Positions 5,772-58,415 of a stretch of DNA of 64,000 nucleotides are shown here, one piece after another. The translations under genes were made by a program, and so were the position numbers. The notes beneath the pieces were generated by a model that was not told the origin of the DNA, ran no database searches, and worked only from the letters and a program-made list of their open reading frames with translations. This stretch comes from Candidatus Collierbacteria bacterium (lineage in GTDB: Bacteria > Patescibacteriota > Microgenomatia > UBA1400 > JACPES01). The DNA lies in assembly GCA_016219325.1 (NCBI GenBank), contig JACRNH010000014.1:132-64131 (forward strand), written 5' to 3'. Numbering within the stretch: position 1 is the first letter of the stretch; every line of letters begins with the position of its first letter.

Positions 5772-6610
5772 TTTTTCCCTATCTTAAATAGTTTGACAGC
5801 TAATAAAATCATTATAATCAGAAAGATAAAATTAAGACCGGGGATTTCTTCGGCAACAGCCGATACCCCGAAGGCCACGTTTTGAATTAATTTAGTGGAT
5901 TCTGATTGACCGGAATCCATTCCCAACAATCCCAGCCTTGTCATAGAAATAGTTGCCAAACCGGTGATTAAAAAAACCGCTGACGCGACTATATTAGACA
6001 CTAACAAATCATATTTCTTACCGAATATATTTATTTCCCCGATTGACTTTCTCATGAGAGGCCGGTCAAGAATATTACGGCTGTCAATAAATGCCGATGC
6101 CAAATAAAGCGGGGCGACCATTCCCAAAACATAAAATGTTCCGACTCCCAAAGACATTAAAATTGTCGGTGATAAAGTCGATAAAGCCATCACTCCGATC
6201 AGTACCGGCGCGCAACACGAGCTGGTAATACCGGAAAAAACTCCCAAGGTGAAGCTGGACCAGACATCAACTTTTCCGGTGTTTTTACGTTGTAAATTAA
6301 TCATCGGCAATTTAATCCCCAACAAAGCAAAGATTGCCAAAATTAATAAAAAAATTCCCCCGAGATAATAAGTTTGGTCATGGAGCCGGAAAAATAACAT
6401 TGATAAGGCTTTGGCTCCCAAAACTACCGGCAACATGATGGAAAAAATTCCCAAGGAATAAATAAATGTCATCAACAGGACCTGTTTTTTCTCTCGGAAA
6501 ATATTTCCGAAATACGACGGCAACAGATAGGTAATACAGCAAGGAGCAAAAAGGGCTACCGATCCGGCAATAAAAGCAGCCAAAAATGAAATTGAGGTAT
6601 ACGCGTCCAT
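5768..6610 (-). CDS. DsbD/CcdA-family integral membrane protein with doubled (vicinal) cysteines
   Basis: FAPCCITYLLP and SSCCAPVLIG sit in positions equivalent to the two conserved Cys of the DsbD transmembrane domain. 4-bp overlap with copB. Confidence 0.6.
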   Translation of the reverse strand: MDAYTSISFLAAFIAGSVALFAPCCITYLLPSYFGNIFREKKQVLLMTFIYSLGIFSIMLPVVLGAKALSMLFFRLHDQTYYLGGIFLLILAIFALLGIKLPMINLQRKNTGKVDVWSSFTLGVFSGITSSCCAPVLIGVMALSTLSPTILMSLGVGTFYVLGMVAPLYLASAFIDSRNILDRPLMRKSIGEINIFGKKYDLLVSNIVASAVFLITGLATISMTRLGLLGMDSGQSESTKLIQNVAFGVSAVAEEIPGLNFIFLIIMILLAVKLFKIGKK

Positions 6611-7576
6611 TTAAGCCCCACAGCTCCCGCCGCGGCTTTGAATCCCCGGGACTCCCTGAATGGCTTGGTTTATCCGGGCGGCGCCCTGGGCGGAAGAATA
6701 ATCTTTGGATAGGGCCACCCGGGGATCGACTTTATCCCAACTTATTCCCTGCTGTTTTTGGAAGTAAACCGCCATTTCAACATATGTATCGGGAAACCAG
6801 AAAGAATTGAGAGCCAGAATGTCTTTATAAATTTGTTTTTCCGAAAGCCCGGCGGAAACAGCAAGTTCAATATAGGCGAGGGCGGCCATGCCGTGGTTGC
6901 AGTCGGGAAAAGCGGTGGCGTTGCCGCAGCAGGGACGGTAAACATTTTCGGCAATTTTTTTGACCATTTCCTGCTGTTGCGGAGTCAAAGGAATAATCTC
7001 TTGACTGCTATAAAGCTCAACCGCGGTTTTTTTACCCAGAGTCCAGCCGCCGGTGGAAGCGAAATTGCCCAATTTGGAGCGGTCGGAAACCATCGGGCCC
7101 TCGTCGAGAACTTTACTTTTGTTGATTAAACCCAGAGCCCATAACAAATTGACTACCAGGCGGGAATTGTTTTCGTTGATAGCGATAGGTTTATTGGAAT
7201 TACCGTTAAGAATGTCAAGATCCGCCCGACCGTCGATATCTGATTTATGGATTTGTTTAAACTTTTCAGCATCAATGGCGCCGGAGTCGACCAGTTTTTT
7301 ACCGATATCTCCCCATTTTAGCGAAGTGACATATCCGCCGGAAGGCAATACTTGAGCGGTGGCTTCTTTGACCAAAAGTTCGGGATTCTTAATTTCCGTC
7401 AGTTGCCGCCGCAGCCGATTTACTTGGCGTCTCATGATCATTTGGTCGGTCAACGCTCCCAACGCTAAAGAATCAATCGTAAATATAATTACCAACCATA
7501 GAGGAACCAATTTCTTAAAAAACTTTATCAGGCGGCCTTGTTTTCTTTTAAATAAAATTTGTTTTAATGTTTTCAT
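6611..7576 (-). CDS. Exported or membrane-anchored Cys-rich protein (hypothetical)
   Basis: N-terminal TM segment, an RPCCGNATAFPDCNHG motif and a C-terminal GGSCGA. Confidence 0.5.
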   Translation of the reverse strand: MKTLKQILFKRKQGRLIKFFKKLVPLWLVIIFTIDSLALGALTDQMIMRRQVNRLRRQLTEIKNPELLVKEATAQVLPSGGYVTSLKWGDIGKKLVDSGAIDAEKFKQIHKSDIDGRADLDILNGNSNKPIAINENNSRLVVNLLWALGLINKSKVLDEGPMVSDRSKLGNFASTGGWTLGKKTAVELYSSQEIIPLTPQQQEMVKKIAENVYRPCCGNATAFPDCNHGMAALAYIELAVSAGLSEKQIYKDILALNSFWFPDTYVEMAVYFQKQQGISWDKVDPRVALSKDYSSAQGAARINQAIQGVPGIQSRGGSCGA

Positions 7577-33860: not shown

Positions 33861-36800
33861 CTATTTTTTCTTGTTCAATGCTTCCAACCGAATACCAATC
33901 TGTTTAGTCACATTTTCTTTAACTTTGGCAAAGACTGGTTTAGATAAGATTTGAGGCAATCTCCTCTCTAGTTTTATCAATTCTTCTTTTGTTGCTGATT
34001 TAATGGCAATAGACCATAAAGCACCGAAGTCGGTAGCCGTTTCTAATATTGGCTGAACTGGTGTTTTTGCTGCAATCGCTCTCGAAACTAAATCTGCAAA
34101 AATATTGCTGATATAGTCTATCCAGTAAATTTTATCTTCAGTTATAAGACCAGGTCTCCACATCTTTGAGATGAACTGGAGAAACACGGCACTAAAACTC
34201 CTCAGGTCGGAACCAGGCAGAAAGATTTGATTTATCAAATGATAGCTTCTTGCACGAAACTTAAAATCATCCTCTGCGACTATTACATAGAGGTCATCAC
34301 CACTGAAACTTACAAAGGTGTAAAAACATTCCGCGAGTTTACCAATTGCTTTTGAATACATTGTTGGGTCTAACAATCCCTGCTCTCGAATTTTTTGGAT
34401 AATTAACCAAGTATTCAATGGGGTTATAGCCTCTGATTTAAGAAGCCTATATAACCTAAAATCATCTGTGACCATGATCGTCCCCCTCTTTTTAGCGAGG
34501 TTCATCGAATCAATGAGCCAGCTTTCAAAAAGGTCATTTGTCTTTTGCCCTTTCAATTTACCTTTTGGAACGTGCTTTATGATTTTTATAGCAGTGCTAC
34601 TTCTAAGAAAGTTCCACAACCTCCTAAGACTTTCATTTTCTTCTTGCAAAAGCTCATCTTGAATTTTTTGAAAAAGCGAAAAGGAAATCTCCATCTGTGG
34701 GCATATTTTCTCGGTATCATTAAGAAGATTTAACTTTGACAGTGTGAGTAAGGATAGGTAATCAAATACAAAGACCTTATCTTTTGAATAGTTATCTTCT
34801 AGTTCTTTTCTAAACTCAACCGATGGCAGGGTGTACTCAAACGGCATTTCTGGATCTCTGCCAGACCATACGGTTATATACGGCTTCTTAAAAGTATTCT
34901 GCAGGAAGTAGGAGGGAATAGGCTGTTGTACGTATATTTGCTTAATTCTATTCGTCCACTCTCTCCTATCTTGAATCATTTTGATAATTTTTCCCTTATC
35001 CTTTCTATAGTCTATCTTTTGGATAGATTTTAGTTCTGGAAATTTTTCATCGAAAGCTAGCGCTCCCTCTAACAATCTGTCTCCACCTTCCTCGGAGGCA
35101 TACCTTAACATAACTGCCCCATAATGAGATAAAACCATTTGTACAGCAGGACCTTTTGGCAGTTGCTCAGCAAACCCCCTTGCTTTTGAGGCGGCTAATA
35201 TTGCCTTGTTTTTATCTCCTAGTAATACTTCGACAAGGCTTACGTCCAACCAGTACTGAAAATCATGTTTGTTTGTGGCTTCCTCCTCAATTTTTTGAAA
35301 TAGACCCCGAGCTATTTCTGGACAGCCATTATAAAGAAATGCTCGAGCGATTCTTATGGTTTCTTTATAGGAAATTTTGTCAAAATCAGGTAAAGATTGT
35401 AGTAGTGATAACGAAACTTCAAAGTCCCTCTTTCTAAATGCCTCAACTGCTTTCAGGAATTTGTCTCCTAGAGTGGATTCATTGGGTATATCACTAATCG
35501 GTAAAGCCATTCTCTTAAGCTTTTGCTCTCCCAACCATGTCCTAACTACATTTTGAAAGTAAAAAACTTCGTCATAGAACAGTGTTAGCTCCTTCTCTCT
35601 AGCCACAGACATCGCTTCATCAAAGTCTGCCTTCGCTTGGTTTAAATGCGTCTTTTTTTGAAACTCTGGGGCAATGTCTGAATAGCCAACGGAGTACGGT
35701 ACGGCATCTTTCTCAAGAGCTATAGCAAGCATGACGCGTCCTCTTAACAATAGACTTTCAACATCGTGCTTAAGCTTACAAGAAATATCTGCAAACTTAA
35801 AAGCATTATCTAACTGCCCAGCTTCTAGGTAAAAATGCCCTACAGTAAGCGATAAGACGTCATCGGAAGTAAACAGCTGCGAATATTGAACGCCTTTTTC
35901 TATGAAACCAATTACACCAGACACTCCTTCTTTAACTCTGACTAGTTTCAAATACACTTGTAATATCGCGGGGTCCTGATCCCTTCTTGTTTCTACCATC
36001 AGTGGTTGAAGTATCTGTTGTGCTTTATCTAGTTCACTTTTAGCTTCTTGTTCTTGTAGCTTTTGGCTTTTGTTTATGTGAACCGTAGCCAAGTTTTTGA
36101 CAGCAATTATGAAATCTGTATTTGCCTTAACTGCTTTCCTGAAGTACTCAATAGCTTCATCTAATTCATCTTCAATGCTGCAAGCAACTCCTATGTTGTT
36201 GTAGACTTTCGCTAATTCATTCCCAAAGTCAGGTTTATCTTCAATCTTCCCAAGAATTTTGAACAATAGTGTTTTGGCTTCTCCAATACTGCCCCTATCG
36301 AGCAAGTCTTTTGCTATTTTAATCTCTTCGTCTATAACTGATCTCTCTATGCCTTTGCCACTTAGGGCAATTGAGGTGGGTTTTTGTTCGTTTTGAGGAG
36401 TGTAAATCGACAACACATCTTTTTTCTGTTCTAACTGCTTTGCTTTCTTTACATCCTTATCTGTTGGTATTCTTTTTTGTCTTCTCGGTGTCGTTTTCAC
36501 AGAGAAAATCTTTTGTTCCTCTTTTCCTTCAAGACCCTTCTTTATCACTTGCTCTTTCCAAACCCCTAATATTCTTTTTCTCTCTGTAAGAGAAAGTTTG
36601 ATAGTCTCCCCATAAATATCTTTATAAATCTTAGGAAAACAGCCTATGAGGTCTTTAATCTGTTGTCTTACGGTCCAAAGGACAATTCTAAACGGATAAC
36701 TATGCTTCTGGAGGGAACCATCTACTACTTCTCTAAATTCGTTGTCAACAAAGCCGAATGGAGCAAATATACACCAACAATCACTGGGGGTACTGGAAGA

Positions 36801-37085
36801 GTAAAACTGACTAAGTTTGGTGTGTGTTTCGGTTTTTGGGATTAGTGTTTCCTTGCGACTCTCACAACCGTGACTTTTTGACTCTATTGCCCAGGCAAAC
36901 TCAATCTCTTTATCGTCAATTTTTGCAGACCACTTAGATATGTGATCCTTGCCAAATTGCAATCCACCACTTTGTGGATTTAATTCTAAAGGTAGGAATT
37001 TCCATTCTTTCAGAAGACAAGTTAAAAATTCGTGCAGTATTTTTTCATACTTGTCGCCCTTAGGCTTAGAGCCCTGTATTTTCAT
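33861..37085 (-). CDS. Large TPR-repeat protein (1074 aa), hypothetical
   Basis: TPR-like helical repeats in the central region, e.g. VYNNIGVACSIEDELDEAIEYFRKAVKANTDF. The N-terminal ~200 aa and the C-terminal third are unassigned. Confidence 0.65.
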   Translation of the reverse strand: MKIQGSKPKGDKYEKILHEFLTCLLKEWKFLPLELNPQSGGLQFGKDHISKWSAKIDDKEIEFAWAIESKSHGCESRKETLIPKTETHTKLSQFYSSSTPSDCWCIFAPFGFVDNEFREVVDGSLQKHSYPFRIVLWTVRQQIKDLIGCFPKIYKDIYGETIKLSLTERKRILGVWKEQVIKKGLEGKEEQKIFSVKTTPRRQKRIPTDKDVKKAKQLEQKKDVLSIYTPQNEQKPTSIALSGKGIERSVIDEEIKIAKDLLDRGSIGEAKTLLFKILGKIEDKPDFGNELAKVYNNIGVACSIEDELDEAIEYFRKAVKANTDFIIAVKNLATVHINKSQKLQEQEAKSELDKAQQILQPLMVETRRDQDPAILQVYLKLVRVKEGVSGVIGFIEKGVQYSQLFTSDDVLSLTVGHFYLEAGQLDNAFKFADISCKLKHDVESLLLRGRVMLAIALEKDAVPYSVGYSDIAPEFQKKTHLNQAKADFDEAMSVAREKELTLFYDEVFYFQNVVRTWLGEQKLKRMALPISDIPNESTLGDKFLKAVEAFRKRDFEVSLSLLQSLPDFDKISYKETIRIARAFLYNGCPEIARGLFQKIEEEATNKHDFQYWLDVSLVEVLLGDKNKAILAASKARGFAEQLPKGPAVQMVLSHYGAVMLRYASEEGGDRLLEGALAFDEKFPELKSIQKIDYRKDKGKIIKMIQDRREWTNRIKQIYVQQPIPSYFLQNTFKKPYITVWSGRDPEMPFEYTLPSVEFRKELEDNYSKDKVFVFDYLSLLTLSKLNLLNDTEKICPQMEISFSLFQKIQDELLQEENESLRRLWNFLRSSTAIKIIKHVPKGKLKGQKTNDLFESWLIDSMNLAKKRGTIMVTDDFRLYRLLKSEAITPLNTWLIIQKIREQGLLDPTMYSKAIGKLAECFYTFVSFSGDDLYVIVAEDDFKFRARSYHLINQIFLPGSDLRSFSAVFLQFISKMWRPGLITEDKIYWIDYISNIFADLVSRAIAAKTPVQPILETATDFGALWSIAIKSATKEELIKLERRLPQILSKPVFAKVKENVTKQIGIRLEALNKKK

Positions 37086-39088: not shown

Positions 39089-39178
39089 TAACTATATAGT
39101 TACAAGTGACTATATGTAACTATAAAAGAGGATGGATAACGAAAGGATTGTGCATTGATTGTGCATTGATTGTGCATC
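39088..39178. promoter_or_regulatory. Repeat-rich region upstream of serine recombinase 1
   Basis: Perfect 16-bp palindrome GTAACTATATAGTTAC at 39088-39103, an extra GTAACTATA copy at 39116-39124, and three 11-bp tandem repeats GATTGTGCATT at 39146-39178. Confidence 0.5.
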
Positions 39179-39260
39179 AAAAACTGAATAGAAACACAAT
39201 TTGCTTAATTAAATATAATTAGTTATAATTAAGTTTAATTAACTAATTTTAAGAAACAAA

Positions 39261-40850
39261 ATGAAAAATTGTTTCATCTATATAAGGGTTTCGACCGATA
39301 CGCAGGCAACTGAGGGTTACTCTTTGGACAACCAAAAAAGAGCTTGCAAAGAGTACGCAGTAAACAAGGAGTATCACCCAAAAGAGGTATTTGTTGACGA
39401 TGGAAAATCTGGGAGAACCGCCAATAGGCCTGAATTTCAGGAAATGTTGAAGAAATTGAAGGATAAACAGGCAGAGTGTGTCATCATCTACAAAATTGAC
39501 CGTTTTGCCCGTAATGTAACTGATTTTTCAAGGGTGAGAAAAGAATTCATTGAGGCGGGCATTGATTTTCTTTCAGTTATGGAGGGCGACCTAACCAATG
39601 GATCAAGCCTTATCTCGAACATCTTCGCCTCGGTCGCAGAATGGGAATCGGAAGTTAATAGTACCAGAACAATAGATGCTCTGGAACAAAAATTTCGAGG
39701 CGGTTGGCAGCCCACCCCACCGCCGATAGGTTATATGACAGTCGGAGAAAAGAATGAGAGAAAATCGTGCGAGCCAGACCCCTATACCGCTCCCATAATC
39801 AAAGAATTGTTTGAGCTCTACGCAACTGGCAACTACTCCCTATTGGAACTACAAGACTGGTTAAGTCAAAAAGATATTGTTTCAAAAAGCGGGACCATCA
39901 TTGGTCACTCAGTAATCAACAACATCTTGAGGAACCCTTTCTACTACGGTCTTATCCGTTGGCACGGAGTGTCAAAAATAGGTAAGCAGAAACCTATCCT
40001 CAAAAAGGATCTCTTTGACACCTGCCAATATGTTCTAGCTAAGCATCGAAGTTTTTTAATCAGGAAAAGGAAACACGATTTTCTGTTGCGGGGTTTTATA
40101 TTCTGTGACAATTGCGAACAACGATATACCGCCGAGTGGCATTATGATGCCCACAAGCTAAAAAACAGAGGTGGCAAAATTGGCTATTACCACTGTCAGA
40201 AAAGGGATAGGAATGGTTGTTCCGCTCCATATGTGGAAATTGAAGATTTACAGAAGCAAGTTGAAGATCAATTTAAGAAAATGCAGTTCTCGCAAAAGTT
40301 TATCGAGATGGTAGTCGTTAAGACTAAAGAGGCAATGACTGAAGGACGAAGTTATCTTAATAATCAACGAATGCAATTAGTGAACCGTAAGACATCGCTT
40401 GAAACAAAGCGAAACAAGCTTGAAGATTCGCTTCTTAACGAAGCTGTTGATAAAGATACCTACAAGAGGCTCCACGTCAAGATCCAAGACAAAATATACG
40501 CAATTAATGACAGGATTGAAGAACTTGAAGATAAGGCTAATATCGATACCAATCTAATTGAGGAAGTGCTGTCCTTTACAAGGGATATTTACAATACATA
40601 CAAGCAGTCACCCGCATTTCTTAAACGCCACTATTTACGGTTCTTCTTTGAGAAGCTGTATGTCAATAATTGTAAGATTTCTAAAATTGAACCGACCCCG
40701 ATTTTCGCGATACTACGGGAAAATCAAGAGGTTATAATAACGGATAATCAGCTCAAGAAATGGAATGAGTTTAGGACTCTAAGCCTTCTGGGTGAAGAAA
40801 TAGAATATTCAGAAATCATCATGGAACAAACAAGGGAGTTGCTTTCCTGA
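39261..40850 (+). CDS. Large serine recombinase (resolvase/invertase catalytic domain plus recombinase and zinc-ribbon domains)
   Basis: YIRVSTDTQ catalytic Ser motif with the conserved DRFAR motif, a Cys cluster (CDNCEQRY...CQKRD..GC) and a coiled-coil C-terminus. Confidence 0.9.
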   Translation: MKNCFIYIRVSTDTQATEGYSLDNQKRACKEYAVNKEYHPKEVFVDDGKSGRTANRPEFQEMLKKLKDKQAECVIIYKIDRFARNVTDFSRVRKEFIEAGIDFLSVMEGDLTNGSSLISNIFASVAEWESEVNSTRTIDALEQKFRGGWQPTPPPIGYMTVGEKNERKSCEPDPYTAPIIKELFELYATGNYSLLELQDWLSQKDIVSKSGTIIGHSVINNILRNPFYYGLIRWHGVSKIGKQKPILKKDLFDTCQYVLAKHRSFLIRKRKHDFLLRGFIFCDNCEQRYTAEWHYDAHKLKNRGGKIGYYHCQKRDRNGCSAPYVEIEDLQKQVEDQFKKMQFSQKFIEMVVVKTKEAMTEGRSYLNNQRMQLVNRKTSLETKRNKLEDSLLNEAVDKDTYKRLHVKIQDKIYAINDRIEELEDKANIDTNLIEEVLSFTRDIYNTYKQSPAFLKRHYLRFFFEKLYVNNCKISKIEPTPIFAILRENQEVIITDNQLKKWNEFRTLSLLGEEIEYSEIIMEQTRELLS

Positions 40851-45823: not shown

Positions 45824-47467
45824 TTGTTACTATGCGAGCCTAAGGATAAACAATATATGAAGGCTGTACTACTTTGCAGGGTATCAAGTAAGGAACAAGG
45901 AGAGTCTGGTTACTCACTTCCGGCACAGGAAAAACTCCTCAGTAGTTATACGACCGGAAAAGGCTTCAAAATAGCCAGGGTGTTTTCTATATCAGAATCA
46001 GCAAGCGGCAAGAAACAAAGGGAAGTATTTAACTCAATGATAGCCTACGTAAAAGAAAACGACATTAAGGTTATTATCATTGAGAAGGCAGATAGGTTTA
46101 CCAGAAATTTCAAGGACTCAGTTGCTTTGTATGAGTGGTTAAATGAAGATGAAGAAAGACAACTCCACTCAGTAAAAGATTCTCTTATCCTTCATAAAAA
46201 TTCACGGTCTCAGGAAAAACTAAACTGGGACATCAGAATCGTTTTTGCTAAGAACTACATAGATAACCTATCCGAAGAGGTTAAGAAGGGCCAAAAAGAG
46301 AAATTATCTCAAGGGTGGCTACCAACGAAACCACCACTGGGATATAAGACGGTCGGGGTTCAAGGCCATAAGATTCACATTATTGACGAAGAAATTGCTC
46401 CCTTGGTCAAGAAAATGTTTGAGCTATATGCTACCGGCGACTACTCTATTAAACGGTTGGTTAAAGTGATGAATGCCAATGGCCTAAGAAACAAGCTAGG
46501 AAGGAAATTAGTCGGCAGCAGAATTCATCAACTCCTGACCGATCCTTTCTATGTTGGGAAAAACCGTTGGCTAGGGAATTTATATGATGGGAAGCAGGAT
46601 ACTTTTATCAGCAGAGAAATATTTGATAGGGTCCAACAGCTTCTAAAAAGCAAATCGGCACCAAGAGTTCGTATCCATGATTTCTTATTCCGAGGCCTTT
46701 GCCGATGCGCTCGCTGTGAAGGAATGATTACATGGGAGACCCACAAAGGCATCATCTACGGCCATTGCAATATTTACTATCACCAATGTACGGCTCGCAA
46801 ATGGGCAACAGAGGCAATTGTTGAATCACAATTAACTGATGTATTTGAGAAACTACAGATCCGCAACCAGCGGCTTTTGGAATGGGTTAGAAAAGCACTT
46901 AAGGAGAGCCATCAGGATGAAGTCGTCTATAGAACATCATCTTTGAATGAGCTTAACGAGTATCAAAAACAGATTAGGCGGCGGCTGGATCGCTTGTATG
47001 ACGATAAGATTGACGGCAAGATCACGGAAGAATTTTATCAGCGAAAATATCGCCAATATTCAGATGAGCTGGATGATGCAAGCCGAAAAATCAAAGGCCA
47101 TGATGTGGCTAACCTCAAATACATGGAGTTAGGAATCAATCTTTTTGAATTATCGCAACAAGCCAAGGATATTTATCTTAATGCGGGTATTGAGCGAAAG
47201 CGAAAGCTGCTCCGCCTTTTCTTCAGCCGATTAATGCTTGATGAGAAAAAGCTAACCTATAACTTCACCAAGCCCTATGAAATTCTTTCCCAAGCCGTAG
47301 ATGTTACCAATAGTTCTAAACTGGTAAAAGTTGAAGAAAAGTCGGACAGAATTATAGAACATAAAATAATGATTGATGATTCAGAACAAATAGGTGATTT
47401 ACAACATCTTCGTTCTATCGTGCTCCCCCGGCTGGACTCGAACCAGCGACATCCTCGTTACAGGTAA
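45824..47467 (+). CDS. Large serine recombinase 2. The annotated 3' end runs antisense across the tRNA-Asn 3' exon.
   Basis: LLCRVSSKEQ catalytic Ser motif, a recombinase domain and Cys clusters. The last ~15 codons (PRLDSNQRHPRYR) are the antisense translation of the tRNA exon. Confidence 0.85.
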   Translation: MLLCEPKDKQYMKAVLLCRVSSKEQGESGYSLPAQEKLLSSYTTGKGFKIARVFSISESASGKKQREVFNSMIAYVKENDIKVIIIEKADRFTRNFKDSVALYEWLNEDEERQLHSVKDSLILHKNSRSQEKLNWDIRIVFAKNYIDNLSEEVKKGQKEKLSQGWLPTKPPLGYKTVGVQGHKIHIIDEEIAPLVKKMFELYATGDYSIKRLVKVMNANGLRNKLGRKLVGSRIHQLLTDPFYVGKNRWLGNLYDGKQDTFISREIFDRVQQLLKSKSAPRVRIHDFLFRGLCRCARCEGMITWETHKGIIYGHCNIYYHQCTARKWATEAIVESQLTDVFEKLQIRNQRLLEWVRKALKESHQDEVVYRTSSLNELNEYQKQIRRRLDRLYDDKIDGKITEEFYQRKYRQYSDELDDASRKIKGHDVANLKYMELGINLFELSQQAKDIYLNAGIERKRKLLRLFFSRLMLDEKKLTYNFTKPYEILSQAVDVTNSSKLVKVEEKSDRIIEHKIMIDDSEQIGDLQHLRSIVLPRLDSNQRHPRYR

Positions 47468-50702: not shown

Positions 50703-52850
50703 ATGAATTGGCCAAAAATTGCCGGTGTCAGCTTCCTGATTTTATTTTCAGAGCTTTTGGTTATCAGGCTTTTGGGGACAGAAATCAGAATCTTTGCTTA
50801 CCTAGGAAATCTAACGCTTCTTATGATTTTCCTGGGATCCGGGATCGGAATGTACATTAAAAAAACCCTTCCCTTGTCATGGACCGCTACCGCTTTTTTC
50901 TTGCTGGCGGCTTTAGTTTCAACTTCATATATTTTGCGGACCCCCAGATTTGACGTTAAATTATTTTCCGGAATTTCGGAGTTATTGGCCCCATTGTCCG
51001 AATCGTATGTTTGGCAGTCCTTAAATACATTCAGTAAAACCGGAGCGGTTTTAGGATTAGGGCTGACTTTGGGAATATTGGGATTAACCGCTTTTGGATT
51101 CATGCCGTTGGGAAACTTATTGGGGAAATTATTGGCAAAAGATCCGCATCCGCTGCGGGCGTATTCAATTAATATCGCCGCCTCGCTATCGGGAATGTGG
51201 GCTTTGCAAATATTTTCACTGGGGCAGCTACCGCTGCTATTGGGGCTGACCCTAGTAATTTGGACGCTATTATTTTTGGAAGATAATCCGACTGCCAGAG
51301 CCGTTATTATGGCCGTGGCCGTTGCCACTATTGCCTTAACAATTCCTAAAACAGCCAATCAGCCATACGAAGGCCCGACGACTTTTTGGTCACCGTACCA
51401 AAAATTGACTTTGTCCCTAATCAATAAAACTAAAATCCAACAACCGCCGGGATATTATCTGGAAGTAAATAACGTCGGCTACATGGGCCTTCTTAATTTA
51501 GGCCCCGATCATCAGGCCACTGTTTCGGCCTGGGCCAAAAACAACGATGTTCTATTCCAAGACCAATACTTAATTCCCTACCGGTTTAAGCCTGATCCGG
51601 AGAACGTTCTGATTATCGGGGCCGGCGGCGGCAATGACGCTTACGGGGCGATCAGGGGCGGAGCCAAAAATGTGGACGCTGTGGAAATCGATCCGGTAAT
51701 AGTTAAAATCGGCAAAAAATATCATCCCAATCTTCCGTACCAAAATTCAAGAATTAATTTAGTTACCGCTGACGGCCGGGCGTTTATGGAAAAAACCAAG
51801 AAGCGCTACGATTTAATCGTCATGGGTCTGGCTGATTCTCATACTTTAAGTTCATCCCTGACCAATCTCCGGCTGGACCACTATTTATATACCAAGGAAA
51901 GTTTGGAGAAGGCCAAGCAACTGCTTAAACCCGACGGGATTTTAGTCTTAAGTTTTGAAGTTCCCCGCCGGTGGATCGGGCAAAGACTGTCCAAAACTGT
52001 TGCCGAAGTTTTTGGGGTTACTCCGCTGACTTTTGAAGTCAGAAGCGATGGGGCTTTCGGCTGGGGCGGATATTTCTTCGTGGCTTCCAAAGACCCCGAC
52101 CTGCTCCCGCGCATTCTTAACCAGAATCCTGATTTTGCCAACTTCATCAAAGAACACGAAAGAACTTTCCCCCCATTAACCATTAACTCATCAACTATTA
52201 ACTCATTGTCTGACGATTGGCCGTATTTATATCTAGACTCTCCCCGTTTACCGGTCCTTCATCTGATTATCGCCGGAATTGCCGCGATCGGACTTTTTTT
52301 AGGGAGGAAGATTATCTTTAAGGACACGAAATTTAACTGGCCGATGTTTTGGTGGGGAGCCGGATTTATGTTATTTGAATTTCAGAACATTACTAAATTC
52401 AGCCTGTTGTTCGGGTTGACATGGCAAACTAATATTATCGTGATTTCCGCGGCATTGATTATGATTCTAGGAGCAAATTGGTTGGTGGAAAGAAAAATGA
52501 TTTCTTCAGGGCTTATGTTTGTCGGACTGATGGCAACGCTGCTCATTCAGGCCGTTATCCCGATTAAATTATTTAATACCCTGCCGGATCTTCATAAGAT
52601 ATTGATTGCCGGGACAATTCTCAATCTCCCCTTTTTCTTCGGCGGAGCGGTTTTTTCCGGGTGGTTCAAAAACGCCAAAGACAAAAAGGCGGCTTTTGCC
52701 GGAAATTTATTGGGCAGCGCCGCCGGTGGTTTAATGGAAATGTTTTCATTTCTTTTAGGAATAAAGGCGATTATTTTTATGGCCGCGGCAATTTATGGAT
52801 TGGGATGGATAGCGGCTTCCGGGAAATTTGCTAAGATAATTAAACGATGA
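50703..52850 (+). CDS. Membrane-fused spermidine-synthase-like (polyamine aminopropyltransferase fold) protein
   Basis: TM-rich N- and C-terminal regions around LIIGAGGGNDAYGAI...NVDAVEIDPVIVK...YDLIVMGLADS. Confidence 0.7.
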   Translation: MNWPKIAGVSFLILFSELLVIRLLGTEIRIFAYLGNLTLLMIFLGSGIGMYIKKTLPLSWTATAFFLLAALVSTSYILRTPRFDVKLFSGISELLAPLSESYVWQSLNTFSKTGAVLGLGLTLGILGLTAFGFMPLGNLLGKLLAKDPHPLRAYSINIAASLSGMWALQIFSLGQLPLLLGLTLVIWTLLFLEDNPTARAVIMAVAVATIALTIPKTANQPYEGPTTFWSPYQKLTLSLINKTKIQQPPGYYLEVNNVGYMGLLNLGPDHQATVSAWAKNNDVLFQDQYLIPYRFKPDPENVLIIGAGGGNDAYGAIRGGAKNVDAVEIDPVIVKIGKKYHPNLPYQNSRINLVTADGRAFMEKTKKRYDLIVMGLADSHTLSSSLTNLRLDHYLYTKESLEKAKQLLKPDGILVLSFEVPRRWIGQRLSKTVAEVFGVTPLTFEVRSDGAFGWGGYFFVASKDPDLLPRILNQNPDFANFIKEHERTFPPLTINSSTINSLSDDWPYLYLDSPRLPVLHLIIAGIAAIGLFLGRKIIFKDTKFNWPMFWWGAGFMLFEFQNITKFSLLFGLTWQTNIIVISAALIMILGANWLVERKMISSGLMFVGLMATLLIQAVIPIKLFNTLPDLHKILIAGTILNLPFFFGGAVFSGWFKNAKDKKAAFAGNLLGSAAGGLMEMFSFLLGIKAIIFMAAAIYGLGWIAASGKFAKIIKR

Positions 52851-54504: not shown

Positions 54505-55623
54505 CTACCCCAAATAATCCTGTAATTTTTTTCTCTTGCTCGGGTGTTTTAATTTTCGCAATGCCTTAGCCTCTATTTGCCTGATTCTTTCTCTGGTTAC
54601 CCCGAATTCCCGGCCGACTTCTTCCAGGGTCAACGGCCGTTGGCCGTCGAGGCCAAAACGCAGCCTTAAGACTTTGTTTTCCCTTTCCGACAACATTCCC
54701 AACACTTCTTCCACGTTTTCTTTTAACAATTGCTTGCTGGTAGCGTCATACGGAGAAAGTTGCGATTCGTCCGGAATAAAATCTCCCAAAAAGCTGTCTT
54801 CTTCATCGCCAATCGGAGTTTCCAGAGAGGTGGTTTTTTGGGCGATTTTCAAAACCTCGCGGACTTTGATCGCGGTCATTTCTTCCATTTCTGCCGCGAC
54901 TTCTTCCGGCTCGGGCTCCCGGCCTAATTTTTGTAAAAGCTGGCGGCTGGTGCGGATGACTTTATTAATCGTTTCCACCATATGGACTGGAATCCTGATG
55001 GTCCGGGCCTGATCGGCAATCGCCCGGGTAATTGCCTGCCTGATCCACCAAGTGGCATAGGTGGAAAACTTATAGCCCTTTTTCCAATCGTATTTCTCCA
55101 CCGCCCGGATCAAACCCTTATTGCCTTCCTGAATCAAATCCAAAAATGACAAGCCGCGGCCGATGTATTTTTTGGCAATGGAGACCACCAGCCGCAAATT
55201 GGCTTTAGTCAGCATGGCTTTGGCCTTCAGATCGCCCTTTTCATATCTCTGGGCCAGATCAATTTCCTGCTCTCTGATCAAAAGCGGAATCCGGCCGATT
55301 TCCTTTAAATACATCCTAACCGGATCGGAACTACCTAATTTGCTGATCTCTTCAAACGATTCCAATTCTTTGGTCAAATCGGTGGAAGCGCTTTTCTCCA
55401 GAGCCCTTTGATCTTCGGCGAAGGTATCAAAGACGTCAATTTTCTCTTGAAATAGCTTGCCGAAAAAAGCGTCCAGATCGTCCAAATGCTTCTCCGCTTC
55501 CGGCAAAATTTCCATGATCTGATCAACGGTAACGAAGCCATCACTTTTACCCTGTTTCCTTAACCGCAGCATGGCTCTTTTCTGTTCCGGAGCCAGAGGC
55601 AGATTCTTTTTAGTCTTCGCCAT
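54505..55623 (-). CDS. rpoD: RNA polymerase primary sigma factor (sigma-70)
   Basis: Regions 1.2 to 4 present, including [18 protein letters not shown]...[20 protein letters not shown] and region 4 [27 protein letters not shown]. Confidence 0.92.
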
Positions 55624-55749: not shown

Positions 55750-57546
55750 TCAGTCTTTTCGCACCAATTGTTTTAAACGGGCTGCCAGGTGGGACAAGGC
55801 CTGTGGCGGAAGCTTCCCGTCTTTGAGCTGGTTCCTGACCAATTCAGCCTCCAGATCGCGTAAAATCAAGCCTAATTCGCTTTTGGCTTCTTCCGAATCT
55901 TCGCCTTTTAACGGCTGAATTGCGGCCTCATCAAACAGCCCGATTAGTTCTGGCGGCAGCGATTGCCGGAAAATTTTAAAATCTCCGTTTTGAAGTTTAA
56001 TAAACTCTTTCAACAGCTCCATCAGTTTCCTCCGGCCAACCGGCTTCACCCAGTTTAAATCAAAATTCTCCGGCAATGGAAGCTTAAACTGAATTAATAG
56101 CCCCAATAAATAATGGCTCAAAATTTCCGCTCTGCTCATGGCGCTTTCATTACCAGCAGGAGCAACTAAGGATGGAGAAACGTGATTTTGTTTCCAGGCT
56201 GACATTTGGCGCCTGACGGCTTCATCCCTGACTCCCAATCTTTTCGCCAGAATACTCACCCAATGATCCTGTTCAATCGCGTTGCTTATTTCGGACAGCA
56301 ACGGCACCAAAACATCTCCTGCCTGACGTTTGGCCTCGGCTGTATCTTTTCCGAATTTTTCCAAAGTACTTTCGATAATCACCCCATAGGCATTTTTAGA
56401 CTTTTCAACCGATTCTCTCCATTTAGAAGGAGATGATTTGGCCAGTTCATCAGGGTCTTTTTCACTTTCCGGCAAAACTACCGCCCGCGAAGACAAGCTA
56501 TGATGCTCTAAAATCGGCAAGCTGCGGATTAGAGCTTCCTGGCCGGCTGAATCGGAGTCCAGGCAAACAACAACTTTTCTGCCGTAACGGCGGACCAATT
56601 TCACCTGGCCCGAAGTCAATGCCGTCCCTTTCACCGCAACTACATTTTTGATTCCGGCCTGCCAGGAGCTGATACAGTCAAATTCCCCTTCCACTAAAAC
56701 AGCCTCGCCTTTTTTGCGGATATCCTCATGATTTTCAAAAATTCCGAACAGATTTTTTGATTTGCGATAAACCGCGGTTTCCGGTGAATTAATATATTTG
56801 GCTTCTTTAATTTCCGGATCGAGCAAACGGCCGGCAAATCCTAAGATTTGCCCGCGGACGTCCCGCAAAGGAAACATCACCCGGCCGCGGAAACGGTCAT
56901 AGTAAGAATTCTGAATTCTGAATTCTGAATTCTGAATGGCGGAAGATCTGGCTTGTTTGTTTTTATTCAGTATTCGGTATTCAGTATTCGGTATTCTTTT
57001 TATTGCCAAGCCAGATTGCTCAATGTGTTCCGGCAGATAACCCTTTTTGGTTAAAAACTTAAACAGATTATCCCATTGGTTTGGAGAATAACCAATACAA
57101 AACGTCTCAATCGCAGATTTGGTGATATAGCGTGATTTTAAATATTCCCGGGCTTTTCCCCCGGCTTTATGTTTAGTTAAAATATAATGATAGAACTCCG
57201 CCGCCAAATGATTAATTTCAAAAATCTGTTTTTCAATTTGCTGCAACCGGTCGTCAACCGCCCGCCTTTCCAATTTAACTCCGGTTTTTTCGGCTAAAAA
57301 TTCCAGCGCTTCGACGAAGGTCATGCCGTCGTGCTTTTCCAAAAAAGTAAACACGTCGCCAGCCGCGCCGCAGCCGAAGCACTTAAAAATTCCCATTTCC
57401 GGGGAAACGGTAAAGCTGGGGGTTTTTTCAGAATGGAACGGACATAGGCCTAAAAATCGCCGGCCGCGCTGTTTCAAGGCAACTTTTTCGCCGATTATTT
57501 GCGCAATATCTACCCGGGATTTTATCTCCGCTACCTGATCGGACAT
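55750..57546 (-). CDS. dnaG: DNA primase DnaG with a repeat-encoded insertion in the linker
   Basis: Zinc-ribbon CPFHSEKTPSF...CFGCG and TOPRIM VLVEGEFDCIS motifs. Two heptamer arrays at 56907-56996 encode NTEYRIL...NSEFRIQNS. Confidence 0.9.
   Translation of the reverse strand: MSDQVAEIKSRVDIAQIIGEKVALKQRGRRFLGLCPFHSEKTPSFTVSPEMGIFKCFGCGAAGDVFTFLEKHDGMTFVEALEFLAEKTGVKLERRAVDDRLQQIEKQIFEINHLAAEFYHYILTKHKAGGKAREYLKSRYITKSAIETFCIGYSPNQWDNLFKFLTKKGYLPEHIEQSGLAIKRIPNTEYRILNKNKQARSSAIQNSEFRIQNSYYDRFRGRVMFPLRDVRGQILGFAGRLLDPEIKEAKYINSPETAVYRKSKNLFGIFENHEDIRKKGEAVLVEGEFDCISSWQAGIKNVVAVKGTALTSGQVKLVRRYGRKVVVCLDSDSAGQEALIRSLPILEHHSLSSRAVVLPESEKDPDELAKSSPSKWRESVEKSKNAYGVIIESTLEKFGKDTAEAKRQAGDVLVPLLSEISNAIEQDHWVSILAKRLGVRDEAVRRQMSAWKQNHVSPSLVAPAGNESAMSRAEILSHYLLGLLIQFKLPLPENFDLNWVKPVGRRKLMELLKEFIKLQNGDFKIFRQSLPPELIGLFDEAAIQPLKGEDSEEAKSELGLILRDLEAELVRNQLKDGKLPPQALSHLAARLKQLVRKD
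56907..56937 (-). repeat. Heptanucleotide tandem repeat (GAATTCT x about 4.4) in-frame within dnaG
   Basis: gaattctgaattctgaattctgaattctgaat, identical to the array in copB. Confidence 0.85.
56965..56996 (-). repeat. Heptanucleotide tandem repeat (ATTC[A/G]GT x about 4.5) in-frame within dnaG
   Basis: attcagtattcggtattcagtattcggtattc. The gene strand encodes NTEYRILN. Confidence 0.8.
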
Positions 57547-57596: not shown

Positions 57597-57902
57597 ATGA
57601 ATTACATCGCTTCCATTACCAGCCAGGGTCAAATTACAATCCCGAAACCGCTAAGGGATCAATTTGGTATTCTGGGCCAAGCCAAAGCGCATCTGGTTAA
57701 AAAGGGCGACAAAATTGAGCTAAAGCTCTATACGCCACATGATCTTGAATTTTGGTATGGAGCGCTAAAAAACAATCCTATAGTGAAAGCAAATAAAGGT
57801 AAACCGCTACAGCAAATTATTGAAGAAGAAAGCGCGGCTTTTGAAAAAGCTATCGCTGATAATGTGGCCGAAGAAATGGGATTGCCGCCGCTAAAAGAAT
57901 AA
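57597..57902 (+). CDS. vapB: AbrB/SpoVT-domain antitoxin (VapB/MazE-like)
   Basis: ITSQGQITIPKPLRDQFGI motif. Immediately upstream of the PIN gene. Confidence 0.7.
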   Translation: MNYIASITSQGQITIPKPLRDQFGILGQAKAHLVKKGDKIELKLYTPHDLEFWYGALKNNPIVKANKGKPLQQIIEEESAAFEKAIADNVAEEMGLPPLKE

Positions 57903-57903
57903 C

Positions 57904-58308
57904 ATGGAGAATTATCAGCTTGATACTAATGCTTTACTCCGATATCTAGCTCATGATATCCCCAGTAAATATCAAAAGGTCCGCTACCTATTCAACAAAG
58001 CGAAGAACGGGCAGGTAACGTTGAATATCTGCGAGCCTGTTTTTATTGAAACTGCGGTAATGTTAAAACAATATTTCAAGTTCCCAAAAGATAAGGTTGT
58101 TGACTTCCTGCATGATTTGCTTAACGCTTCTTATTTAAATATAGAAAATTCTTCCCGGCTGGCTCCGGCAATTGATATTTACTCGCAGAATTCCATCGAT
58201 TTAGTTGATGCGATTGTCCTAGTCCGCGCTTACATTAATAATCAACAAATTTTTACTTTTGACTCCAAATTATCATTATTGGCTTCGTCACGGGAAAAAG
58301 CAAATTAA
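57904..58308 (+). CDS. vapC: PIN-domain toxin (VapC family)
   Basis: 134 aa with QLDTNALL at the N-terminus and conserved acidic residues. Confidence 0.7.
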   Translation: MENYQLDTNALLRYLAHDIPSKYQKVRYLFNKAKNGQVTLNICEPVFIETAVMLKQYFKFPKDKVVDFLHDLLNASYLNIENSSRLAPAIDIYSQNSIDLVDAIVLVRAYINNQQIFTFDSKLSLLASSREKAN

Positions 58309-58329: not shown

Positions 58330-58415
58330 GGAGGAGTGTGCCGAATGGTAAGGCACCGCTCTCGAAAAGCGGCGGGCGCAAGCCCTTGCAGGTTCGATTC
58401 CTGTCTCCTCCGCCA
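58330..58415 (+). tRNA. tRNA-Ser(CGA), class II with a long variable arm
   Basis: GGAGGAG/CTCCTCC acceptor stem, 3-bp D-stem, CUCGAAA anticodon loop, GGGC-GCAA-GCCC variable arm, TTCGATT T-loop, and an encoded CCA. Confidence 0.85.

Follow-up and report, generated by a model that had tools for sequence, protein, structure and literature searches.

The primase gene dnaG of a Candidatus Collierbacteria bacterium, a member of the candidate phyla radiation, was found to carry, in the middle of its coding sequence, two in-frame arrays of tandem heptanucleotides that lie in imperfectly inverted orientation and encode an insert at the tip of a β-hairpin. The feature is probably, with considerable room for doubt, a compound pair of heptanucleotide simple sequence repeats (SSRs) that was made by slippage and switching and filtered by selection. 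Arrays of this kind belong to a known, unexplained class of bacterial 7-base tandem repeats, in this case tolerated inside housekeeping genes. Tandem units of a length not divisible by three pose a constant risk of frameshift, and such repeats would be expected to be purged from an essential gene such as dnaG. They nonetheless persist there and, elsewhere, in aminoacyl-tRNA synthetase genes, with turnover among close relatives and a restriction to the tips of hairpins. The arrays thus offer a natural system for two questions, namely how heptamer repeats—the commonest and least understood bacterial class—originate and spread, and where in proteins arbitrary insertions can be tolerated. In practice, the inserts break up matches to Pfam domains and make marker genes of uncultured lineages look more divergent than they are.

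Heptanucleotide Arrays in dnaG

In the 64-kb stretch of DNA analyzed here (the window), dnaG occupies positions 55750-57546 of the minus strand and encodes a DNA primase of 598 aa, with Pfam matches to Zn_ribbon_DnaG, DNAG_N (in two stretches), Toprim, and DnaB_bind. The protein is 100% identical to a Candidatus Collierbacteria protein at NCBI, and rpoD (54505-55623, minus strand) is the next gene. A sequence-only reading had described two in-frame heptamer runs in dnaG, with 4.4 and 4.5 copies and about 28 nt between them; both runs and their frame were confirmed, with Tandem Repeats Finder (TRF) giving 4.6 and 4.7 copies, and the gap measuring 26 nt. The downstream array in the sense of the gene, (AGAATTC)×4.6, lies at 56906-56937 on the minus strand (GAATTCT in the plus-strand reading; 100% matches, TRF score 64) and by codon reading encodes IQNSEFRIQNS, residues 204-214 of DnaG. 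The upstream array, (GAATACC/GAATACT)×4.7, at 56964-56996 on the minus strand, encodes RIPNTEYRILN, residues 184-194; it has 88% matches at period 7 and is better fitted by the 14-mer TATTCAGTATTCGG (×2.4, 100%). In its third unit, a C at unit position 7 avoids an in-frame TGA.

The 26-nt spacer (56938-56963, minus strand), encoding about KNKQARSSA, forms the loop of a predicted hairpin. Together, the two arrays make up an imperfect inverted repeat (56899-57003, no strand assigned) with 39-nt arms that are 79% complementary and 27 nt apart. Its predicted RNA fold has an energy of -20.9 kcal/mol (z = -6.7), with none of 200 shuffles equally stable, and its DNA fold has a z of -5.3. Three period-7 arrays of at least 3.5 copies were detected in the window versus none in 30 Markov shuffles, and the motif GAATN3GAATN3GAAT, with at most one mismatch, was matched 16 times versus 1.24 expected; the arrays are thus not due to chance. 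With head-to-tail units of 5-11 nt and a length beyond that predicted from composition, the dnaG arrays belong to the heptanucleotide long SSRs (LSSR5-11).

For an array alone, frame retention is uninformative, because a 7-nt unit read three times yields one cyclic heptapeptide whichever frame is used. On the complementary strand, (GAATTCT)n is read as GAA TTC TGA, and therefore only a single orientation can be coding. No out-of-frame alleles were found among the matches listed, with 120 DnaG and 120 CopA homologues all reading through.

Position of the Insert in the Primase

The insert is located at the tip of a β-hairpin in the N-terminal subdomain of the catalytic (RNA-polymerase) core of the primase. 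Its earlier placement in a linker before TOPRIM was imprecise: the site is inside Pfam DNAG_N, the match to which is split into two stretches by the insert, and about 65 residues ahead of TOPRIM (which starts at residue 281), and is therefore not in the zinc-finger/core linker. That the insert occupies a loop was borne out by an AlphaFold model, with the insert lying between strands 181-183 and 215-217 at a pLDDT of about 51-54, and by alignment to PDB primases, which align to residue 180/187 and resume at 213, with no counterpart of the insert in the solved primases of that alignment. Among the matches listed, the segment from GL to YDRF is 35 aa long here, compared with 8 aa in the nearest relatives, and most Patescibacteria have 7-10 aa; the excess over the nearest relatives is 27 residues, rather than the 20 or so first estimated. 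The inserted peptide is most likely a tolerated passenger rather than a required part of the primase.

Turnover at the Insertion Site

Comparison of DnaG sequences showed the same tip to be a hot spot across Patescibacteria. Depending on the lineage, the tip contains a pair of heptamer arrays built from other units, a pair of octamer arrays, or else a GC-rich hairpin. Its arrays are lineage-specific, with units of 7 or 8 nt, and usually form two adjacent blocks of about 4-5 units—for example, GAATGAC/ATTCAAC in locus L004, octamers in L009 and L010, ATACGAA/CGTATCR in L132, and further units in L133 and L134. At the protein level, inserts with a periodicity of 7 residues occur in many DnaGs of 42-57% identity among the matches listed. 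When the 44-residue peptide encoded by the GC-rich insert was used as a protein query, nothing was retrieved, its source protein also being missed, and the result is uninformative.

The idea that the extra residues are an insert by comparison with related sequences held: P0002, P0005, and P0010, which are 87-90% identical outside the linker and are the closest relatives without an insert among the matches listed, have 8 residues there, and no relative with a segment of the same length free of repeats was found among these matches. The peptide is conserved among P0001, P0012, P0014, and P0018, and in relatives of 80-89% identity the peptide is either quite different or absent. Like kinds of insert recur in clades that are only 52-62% identical, whereas proteins that are 87-94% identical differ in kind. 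Close relatives can differ in every unit of an array simultaneously, the copy number varies (×4.7 for the upstream array in the window versus ×5.6 in L002), and the spacing between paired sites in orthologues ranges from 0 to 27 nt. In-place expansion was seen directly in a comparison of L005, with CATCAACGCATCA (1.6 octamer units), and L010, with CATCAACC ×4.6, the difference being exactly three units, or 24 nt. At third codon positions, conservation of the insert was 0.77 versus a gene mean of 0.37 between the window and L001, and 0.87 versus 0.37 between L006 and L008. Among the lineages sharing the insert, no other part of dnaG is as conserved at these positions, and the flanks show no elevation. 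A hairpin universal to these inserts was considered and rejected, the arrays of L133 and L134 not being complementary.

Arrays in Other Genes

A second (AGAATTC)×4.6 array, at 5170-5201 on the minus strand (AATTCTG ×4.6 in TRF), is located in copB, the gene for a copB/copA-type heavy-metal P-type ATPase (3672-5771, minus strand) assigned from its homologues and its Pfam HMBD, E1-E2_ATPase, and Hydrolase matches. The array reads INSEFRIQNSEL and encodes INSEFRIQNSE, and its identity to the dnaG array, proposed from the sequence alone, was upheld over 31 nt matched at 100%. The site is again the tip of a hairpin, here where the actuator domain of the copper P-type ATPase begins, and the array with its flanks (5168-5203) constitutes a 36-nt near-palindrome. 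Orthologues of copB carry lineage-specific, 7-residue-periodic inserts at this one tip, with NSEFRIQ, RTKDEGR, KTENRKQ, QTENREQ, and mixed forms, apparently including P0134, in proteins that are 76-86% identical, and the peptide KDEGRR occurs both in a DnaG (P0026) and in CopA proteins (P0122/P0127).

Two further in-frame arrays were detected. The third, (AAACTCA)×4.4 with 87% matches, at 2957-2987 on the plus strand, encodes KLSNSKLKTQS in a DUF3105 protein, the Pfam DUF3105 match of which is split in two stretches. The fourth, at 52173-52207 on the plus strand, is of the CATTAAC/CATCAAC type (period 7 ×4.7 or period 15 ×2.2 in TRF) and lies in the gene for a spermine-synthase-like membrane protein; the orthologues in L004, L008, and L009 are without an array, and in L006 the site is occupied by an octamer array. 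Units of the CATCAAC/CATTAAC type are common to dnaG and the spermine-synthase-like gene of L010. All the arrays detected in the window are within genes and in frame. Regarding the proposal of a repeat family spreading into surface loops, the recurrence of same-unit arrays in different genes stands, and spread as mobile DNA is at most suggested. The full pair occurs once in the 64 kb of genome, and a single arm once more, in copB.

Tandem repeats in these genomes are dominated by period 7. Run on about 174 kb of DNA from Patescibacteria—a sample partly biased towards dnaG loci—TRF detected 16 arrays of period 7 and 6 of period 14, along with 4 of period 8, 3 of period 16, and 4 of period 9; no array had a period of 5-6, and shuffles gave about 0.1 per period. 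The exact AGAATTC array was also found in frame in metagenomic LeuRS, ArgRS, PNPase, TsaD, and other proteins, comprising at least 15 protein families, on contigs of 32-69% G+C with unrelated flanks; these AT-rich arrays are present even in contigs of 60-69% G+C. A metagenomic LeuRS sequence, EFRIQNSEFRIS, aligns without gaps to the hairpin LFPVEGKEVRIP of Thermus thermophilus, with the array replacing a native hairpin of equal length (12 residues) rather than being added.

The phases at which arrays start and end vary. Copy numbers of the form 1+3k were observed in 16 of 24 cases in long ORFs versus 37 of 86 (p = 0.06), a trend only. By number of full units, 8 Patescibacteria arrays have two, 3 have three, and 8 have four, a distribution that is suggestive in a small sample. 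Metagenomic matches peak at 32-34 nt, but the idea that modules favor a length of about 33 nt was rejected, since the search pattern needed at least 27 nt and lengths are quantized as 7n+5, making the peak a threshold effect. That four contigs seem to conserve the exact AGAATTC array at one LeuRS site was likewise discounted as a sign of constraint, the scan being able to find intact arrays only.

Comparison with Known Repeats

Heptanucleotide repeats have been described as the most abundant class of long SSRs, with an origin by slippage proposed, and, according to the same summaries, surveys of this type found units other than triplets to be depleted in coding regions (Mrazek, 2007, as summarized in PMC4679880 and PMC4692102). 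The arrays described here share with LSSR5-11 the 7-nt units far beyond chance, the dominance of period 7, the genome-favored units, and the proposed slippage origin, but are found in genes, some of them essential, and in frame, and in small-genome Patescibacteria rather than in large-genome free-living bacteria.

In Geobacter metallireducens, eight opposite-strand pairs of five tandem heptamers with the consensus MTYCTGA, including ATTCTGA, have been reported, with such class 3 pairs being intergenic putative regulator-binding sites, as well as 49 copies of four GGACCGG units (Gmet_H4) within and between genes (PMC2700814). The plus strand of 56906-56937 reads, in another register, as (ATTCTGA)n ×4.6, which fits MTYCTGA; about five units per array and paired opposite-strand sites at a variable distance are further similarities to class 3, and a location inside genes is shared with Gmet_H4. 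Homology with the Geobacter arrays is probably not needed to account for the resemblance. Dispersed heptamer arrays that share a unit, present in 2-6 copies or more per array, are also known as TAACTGA repeats in Beggiatoaceae, Cyanobacteria, and Bacteroidetes (PMC4679880) and as GGGNATC repeats in Xanthomonas and Nostoc (PMC4692102). As in the present case, stop codons bar one orientation of these repeats from ORFs, and the few copies in ORFs encode a cyclic heptapeptide. However, the TAACTGA and GGGNATC repeats are for the most part found between genes, close to start or stop codons, with the ORF copies at protein ends, whereas the arrays described here lie in the middle of conserved enzymes, at the tips of hairpins.

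Rickettsia palindromic elements, which Ogata and colleagues are said to have described in 2000 as 100-150 bp long, with a family consensus and without internal tandem heptamers, are similar in being palindromic DNA that lies in frame in conserved, even essential genes, at surface-exposed sites and with a patchy presence. They differ in that only a 32-nt arm recurs elsewhere in the present case: in-frame placement at exposed sites of conserved genes was found, and a dispersed family of whole elements, as expected of Rickettsia palindromic elements or MITEs, was not found in the window and the collected loci. We know of no sequence relation between the Rickettsia elements and the arrays described here. 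Phase-variable contingency loci also have a non-triplet tandem repeat within the coding sequence, in which a slip by a single unit would therefore shift the frame. Unlike such loci, the host genes here are essential housekeeping genes with all listed orthologues in frame—not dispensable genes with coexisting in-frame and out-of-frame alleles—and the arrays lie in a mid-gene loop rather than at the 5′ end of a surface or restriction-modification gene.

Origin of the Arrays

In the explanation favored here, replication slippage together with strand or template switching would create and remodel the arrays. Selection would then keep the stop-free orientation and frame-preserving lengths, as well as units whose cyclic heptapeptide suits a hairpin, with four residues forming an amphipathic strand and the other three a polar turn (E-F-R-I / Q-N-S and E-Y-R-I / P-N-T). 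Within a genome, units may be homogenized by ectopic conversion or by recombination among arrays, as in dnaG and copB, and short conserved flanking codons would permit the exchange of cassettes between lineages.

The higher-than-gene conservation of the insert at third positions is not predicted by neutral slippage alone and counts against this explanation. Other observations also sit uneasily with it: insert kinds are patchy with respect to DnaG identity; a three-unit jump without lethal frameshift intermediates is awkward in an essential gene; two unrelated genes within 64 kb share an identical 31-nt array; AGAATTC arrays occur at 60-69% G+C, where local seeds should be rare; and the 1+3k copy-number test is suggestive at most.

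An unlikely alternative is a small mobile foldback or palindromic element—like the Rickettsia palindromic elements or MITEs—with arms of tandem 7-8-mers, which would enter permissive loops of housekeeping genes in one piece and travel between loci and lineages. True mobility is suggested by the patchiness of insert kinds relative to the DnaG tree and by the conservation of synonymous positions above that of the gene, with sharp edges. The array shared by copB and dnaG, its in-frame recurrence in at least 15 protein families amid unrelated flanks and differing G+C, the three unrelated hairpin-forming inserts (heptamer, octamer, and GC-rich) at one site, and the multicopy paired arrays of Geobacter, with insertion sequences at fixed distances from one class (PMC2700814), point in the same direction. 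However, the insert edges have neither conserved termini nor a target-site duplication, array phases vary, the L133 and L134 arms are not complementary, a three-unit expansion took place in situ, and the array in LeuRS substitutes for native residues. Furthermore, the composite array-spacer-array is confined to dnaG orthologues, which were the only matches to the whole element when the 99-nt insert was compared by BLAST with the window and collected loci, and a scan of the window ORFs of at least 160 aa revealed no transposase, Y1/RAYT enzyme, or reverse transcriptase. The only such enzymes in that scan were two large serine recombinases in an unrelated island. An IS608-like TTAC target beside the dnaG array was dismissed as chance, because it is missing at copB and on the wrong side.

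About equally improbable is an undescribed active copy-and-paste or conversion process of which the arrays would be modules, with heptamer blocks of about 26-40 nt and foldback pairs being written into or over β-hairpin tips (in DnaG, CopA, LeuRS, ArgRS, PNPase, TsaD, and others), homogenized within a genome, and exchanged between lineages. Such a process would leave the insert conserved above its host gene, and would give Patescibacteria and other environmental bacteria a counterpart to the palindromic elements of Rickettsia.

Less likely again is a functional cis-element, either an mRNA or single-stranded DNA hairpin or a periodic protein-binding array, that tunes the dnaG-rpoD operon in its expression, processing, or translation pace. 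The stability of the fold relative to shuffles, the presence of differing but invariably hairpin-folding sequences at one site per lineage (-22 to -70 kcal/mol), and the conservation of nucleotides above that of the gene are consistent with this role, and regulator binding was proposed for a like architecture in Geobacter (PMC2700814). Inverted array pairs, however, fold well by construction, the array recurs in many unrelated genes, the L133 and L134 arms do not pair, and P0002, P0005, and P0010, the closest relatives among the matches listed, are entirely without the insert. No promoter- or terminator-like site was found at the insert, and Rfam covariance models gave no match to it, only tRNAs reaching the gathering score in the window, L006, L008, and L009.

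An adaptive protein insertion, in which two amphipathic strand-turn peptides lengthen the native hairpin to a β-ribbon with a role in the primase, possibly through contacts with the template, helicase, or a partner, is very doubtful. The peptide is conserved among the four proteins named above, its heptapeptides have a strand-plus-turn character, and the array peptide matches the native LeuRS hairpin residue for residue, but AlphaFold predicts no ribbon and has low confidence at the insert, close relatives carry quite different peptides or none, and the identical peptide occurs in unrelated enzymes.

Finally, an assembly or sequencing artefact is scarcely credible: the DnaG protein of the window is known from one contig, but the same architecture is present in independent NCBI, JGI, ENA, and Logan assemblies, the frame is kept in every case, the arrays of 32-33 nt are far below read length, and, with regard to the chimeric assembly raised as a concern by the sequence-only reading, independent assemblies agree (L002 = L003, L006 = L007, and L010 = L011).

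Paired heptamer arrays in the primase gene

The dnaG gene of the window (598 codons, 55750-57546, minus strand, followed by rpoD) carries the two heptamer arrays that a sequence-only reading had proposed, and both were recovered by Tandem Repeats Finder: a GAATTCT array of 4.6 copies at 56906-56937 (100% matches), and a second array at 56964-56996 that can be read with a period of 7 (4.7 copies, 88%) or of 14 (2.4 copies, 100%). On the coding strand, (GAATACC/GAATACT)x4.7 precedes (AGAATTC)x4.6, the two being separate, as proposed, with a spacer of 26 nt rather than a gap of about 28 nt. The region encodes GLAIK-RIPNTEYRILN-KNKQARSSA-IQNSEFRIQNS-YYDRFRGR, and the whole DnaG matches a Candidatus Collierbacteria entry in the NCBI proteins at 100% identity. 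A chance origin of the heptamer arrays is excluded: three arrays of period 7 reach 3.5 copies or more in the window and none in 30 Markov shuffles, and the spaced GAAT motif has 16 matches in the window against 1.24 expected.

A 7-nt unit read three times yields a single cyclic heptapeptide, independent of frame. Since the opposite strand, (GAATTCT)n, has TGA in all frames, coding is possible in one orientation only. Unit three of the upstream array, with the reading GAA TAC C.., has to end in C and not in T if TGA is to be avoided, which explains one or both of the C/T alternations underlying the 14-nt period. The two arrays are also imperfect reverse complements (arms of 39 nt, 79% complementary, 27 nt apart), and a folding energy of −20.9 kcal/mol was calculated for the 103-nt stretch as RNA, with z scores of −6.7 for RNA and −5.3 for DNA.

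Beside dnaG, and divergent from it, a small antitoxin-like ORF and a 134-aa ORF are followed by a tRNA gene (57597-58308 and 58330-58412). The 134-aa ORF resembles a PIN-domain toxin, judging from the PIN match of the corresponding ORF in the related locus L008; similar ORF pairs flank dnaG in L002 and L008.

Position of the insert in the primase

The insert lies inside the Pfam DNAG_N domain, whose match it splits in two, about 65 residues N-terminal of TOPRIM. Its proposed placement before TOPRIM and in a loop holds, but the site is not the linker that joins zinc finger and catalytic core. The GL-to-YDRF segment is 35 residues long, compared with 8 in the closest relatives and 7-10 in most Patescibacteria, so that the excess over the 8-residue form, correctly recognized as an insert, is 27 residues and not about 20. 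In an AlphaFold model built with 105 homologues as input (mean pLDDT of 90.6), the insert falls between strands 181-183 and 215-217, at the tip of a β-hairpin, with block means of 54 (residues 191-200) and 51 (201-210) and values below 50 at residues 205-208. The solved primases 2au3 and 5guj have no counterpart of the insert, the alignment running up to residue 180/187 and resuming at 213.

The primase tip in relatives

The tip was read in the DNA of 16 loci, representing 13 distinct dnaG orthologues. Three homologues that are 87-90% identical to the window DnaG outside the tip (P0002, P0005, and P0010) have no insert. At 84% identity outside the tip, L004 has GAATGAC/GAATGAA x5.4 followed immediately by ATTCAAC x4.6, and L009, with a protein 81% identical to that of the window, has inverted octamer arrays at 7010-7095 (AGGTYAAC x4.6 and CAGCCTGT x4.1). 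The tip of L010, built from the CATTAAC/CATCAAC unit family, contains CATCAACC x4.6 where L005 has CATCAACGCATCA, amounting to 1.6 units; the two differ by precisely three units (24 nt). In L006 (4145-4276) and L008 (1932-2003), the tip, which is that of P0003, P0008, and P0019, is occupied by a GC-rich insert. It measures about 110 nt, encodes ...LPSEASSLAPVKGDGAGSGRSS..., and folds at −62 to −70 kcal/mol; the two copies share 93% identity over 72 nt, while the lineages themselves are just 58% identical. No further copy was found among the compared loci, and no Rfam match.

L001 and L002 carry a heptamer pair nearly identical to that of the window despite DnaG identities of 54-56% outside the tip (53% and 56%, respectively, at full length). 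In Patescibacteria at 42-44% identity, two adjoining heptamer blocks are again present, inverted in L132 (ATACGAA x3.7 and CGTATCR x4.6) and without complementarity in L133 and L134, and a 7-residue periodicity is visible at the protein level in many further DnaG proteins. Thus, the tip is a hot spot for arrays of 7-8-nt units, mostly present as two blocks with about 4-5 units each, and pairing between blocks is common, but not universal. The DnaG of L002 has an additional array, ACCCGAC x4.4, in a C-terminal low-confidence linker. Two homologues, P0009 (911 aa) and P0016 (975 aa), exceed the others in length by about 300-380 residues; this length and precomputed Pfam matches (PF14528 in both, PF13403 also in P0016) suggest inteins in dnaG of related lineages.

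Other array-bearing genes

The AGAATTC array recurs in the copper ATPase gene copB (3672-5771, minus strand), where 31 nt at 5170-5201 are identical to the dnaG array, bearing out the identity first noticed. The site is the hairpin tip where the actuator domain begins. Patescibacteria have the canonical sequence AHLKTDNGIKEVEI there, in place of which the Collierbacteria clade has lineage-specific inserts with a 7-residue period: NSEFRIQ in the window, RTKDEGR in P0122 and P0127, KTENRKQ in P0125, P0126, and P0132, QTENREQ in P0129, and a mixed form in P0134. The peptide RKDEGRR is also present at the DnaG tip of P0026. In the gene of a spermine-synthase-like membrane protein, the window and L010 have CATTAAC/CATCAAC-type heptamers, L006 has octamers, and L004, L008, and L009 have no array. 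A DUF3105 protein of the window has AAACTCA x4.4 between its two Pfam stretches. Period 7 is the dominant one in about 174 kb of Patescibacteria DNA, a sample weighted in part towards dnaG loci: 16 arrays have period 7 and 6 have period 14, compared with 4 of period 8, 3 of period 16, and none of periods 5-6, shuffled sequences giving about 0.1 per period.

Arrays of about 4-5 units are not limited to coding DNA, as a 9-kb Patescibacteria contig, L135, has at least six intergenic arrays of 7-8-mers (710-2166 and 6972-7010; 4.3-5.7 units; TTAGAAA, AATTTGC, AATTTAA, TTAATTT, and ATAGCAAC). Its rpoD is called as two ORFs (5890-6970), ATCGGCCAAAGTTCCTCTTTTGACG resembling a 1-base insertion in the conserved IGKVPLLT codons; an array effect was rejected in favor of a frameshift or assembly error. 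In a YqeY-like gene of the Collierbacteria contig L006, 7866-7885 reads (TAACTGA)x2.9, the heptamer of a Beggiatoaceae/Cyanobacteria repeat family.

Arrays of five GAAT cores spaced 7 nt apart are present in at least 120 species genomes of many phyla, mostly intergenically and sometimes in inverted pairs among the matches listed. In a Phycisphaerales MAG (L076), (GAATTCT)x4.6 occurs twice in identical form (4121-4152 and 4717-4748, at a distance of 596 nt), both copies falling within a single open frame of 2.5 kb that runs on the opposite strand. An exact (GAATTCA) array of at least 27 nt was found in at least 120 metagenome contigs with 32-69% G+C and unrelated flanks, often adjoining other heptamer arrays or inverted (CATTCTG)n; 54 of the 122 listed fall within open frames of 600 nt or more, invariably in the AGAATTC sense. 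Pfam-confirmed hosts include LeuRS (three contigs, with a fourth judged from flanking sequence), ArgRS (two), PNPase, TsaD, glutamate dehydrogenase, a class I Glu/Gln-tRNA synthetase, MiaA, Mfd, CarB, an M16 peptidase, a molybdenum hydroxylase, and DegT, among others. In LeuRS, the 12 array-encoded residues EFRIQNSEFRIS align without gaps to LFPVEGKEVRIP in T. thermophilus LeuRS, indicating that the array substitutes for a native hairpin of equal length; the heptapeptide pattern is a four-residue amphipathic strand and a three-residue polar turn. Peptide compatibility and a stop-free strand would decide which units and sites survive.

Origin of the arrays

The dnaG feature is best placed among the heptanucleotide tandem repeats of bacteria, as a further member of a class that is known but poorly understood. 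As Mrazek (2007) is cited in PMC4679880 and PMC4692102, heptamers are the most abundant among long simple-sequence repeats in most bacterial genomes, polymerase slippage has been put forward as their origin, and units other than multiples of three are rare in coding regions. Four units are preferred in the GGGNATC repeats of Xanthomonas and Nostoc (PMC4692102), and TAACTGA repeats in Beggiatoaceae lie chiefly upstream of genes, with few within ORFs (PMC4679880). Geobacter metallireducens has 49 copies of four GGACCGG units within and between genes, 24 pairs of four octamers, and eight opposite-strand pairs of five heptamers with the consensus MTYCTGA (PMC2700814), which is matched by ATTCTGA, the window unit in another register. 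The dnaG arrays are notable in being in frame in essential genes and in marking a recurrent primase hot spot across Patescibacteria.

Expansion in place is visible, from 1.6 octamer units in L005 to 4.6 in L010. The main evidence against a purely neutral, vertical slippage is the conservation of the insert together with its patchy distribution. With DnaG identities computed without the tip, a single clade of 83-94% identity includes two kinds of heptamer, two kinds of octamer, the GC-rich insert, and empty alleles, and these kinds reappear in clades 52-62% identical. At third codon positions, no other part of the gene is as well conserved as the insert between lineages with a common kind (0.77 versus a gene mean of 0.37 for the window and L001, 0.77 versus 0.44 for the window and L002, and 0.87 versus 0.37 for L006 and L008), conservation not being raised in the adjoining stretches. 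Collinearity between the inserts of the window and L001 extends through the spacer, so that they are homologous, not convergent. This pattern fits cassette exchange through conserved flanks of about 20 nt, the window and L002 having 20 identical nt in the YDRFRGR codons; it also fits a mobile unit that inserted, or a constraint acting at the nucleotide level. The proposed spread of repeat units into loops of essential proteins is partly supported, in that arrays of the same unit occur in loops of several; movement as a unit is conjectural. A real copy-and-paste or conversion mechanism is considered unlikely, the excess conservation and patchy distribution leaving it a small but appreciable chance.

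Other repeats and genes of the window

A region at about 21000-48000 has the character of a mobile or defence island, with two large serine recombinases (39261-40850 and 45824-47467), a 1074-aa TPR protein with a PIN domain, of the TPR-GreAB-C-PIN type (33861-37085), two AAA_14/DUF4143 ATPases, a Fic protein, DUF4365, and DUF4145. Directly upstream of the first recombinase gene are a perfect 11-mer array, GATTGTGCATT x2.9 (39146-39177), and an AT-rich 10-mer array of 3.7 copies (39206-39242), which may be recombinase or regulatory sites.
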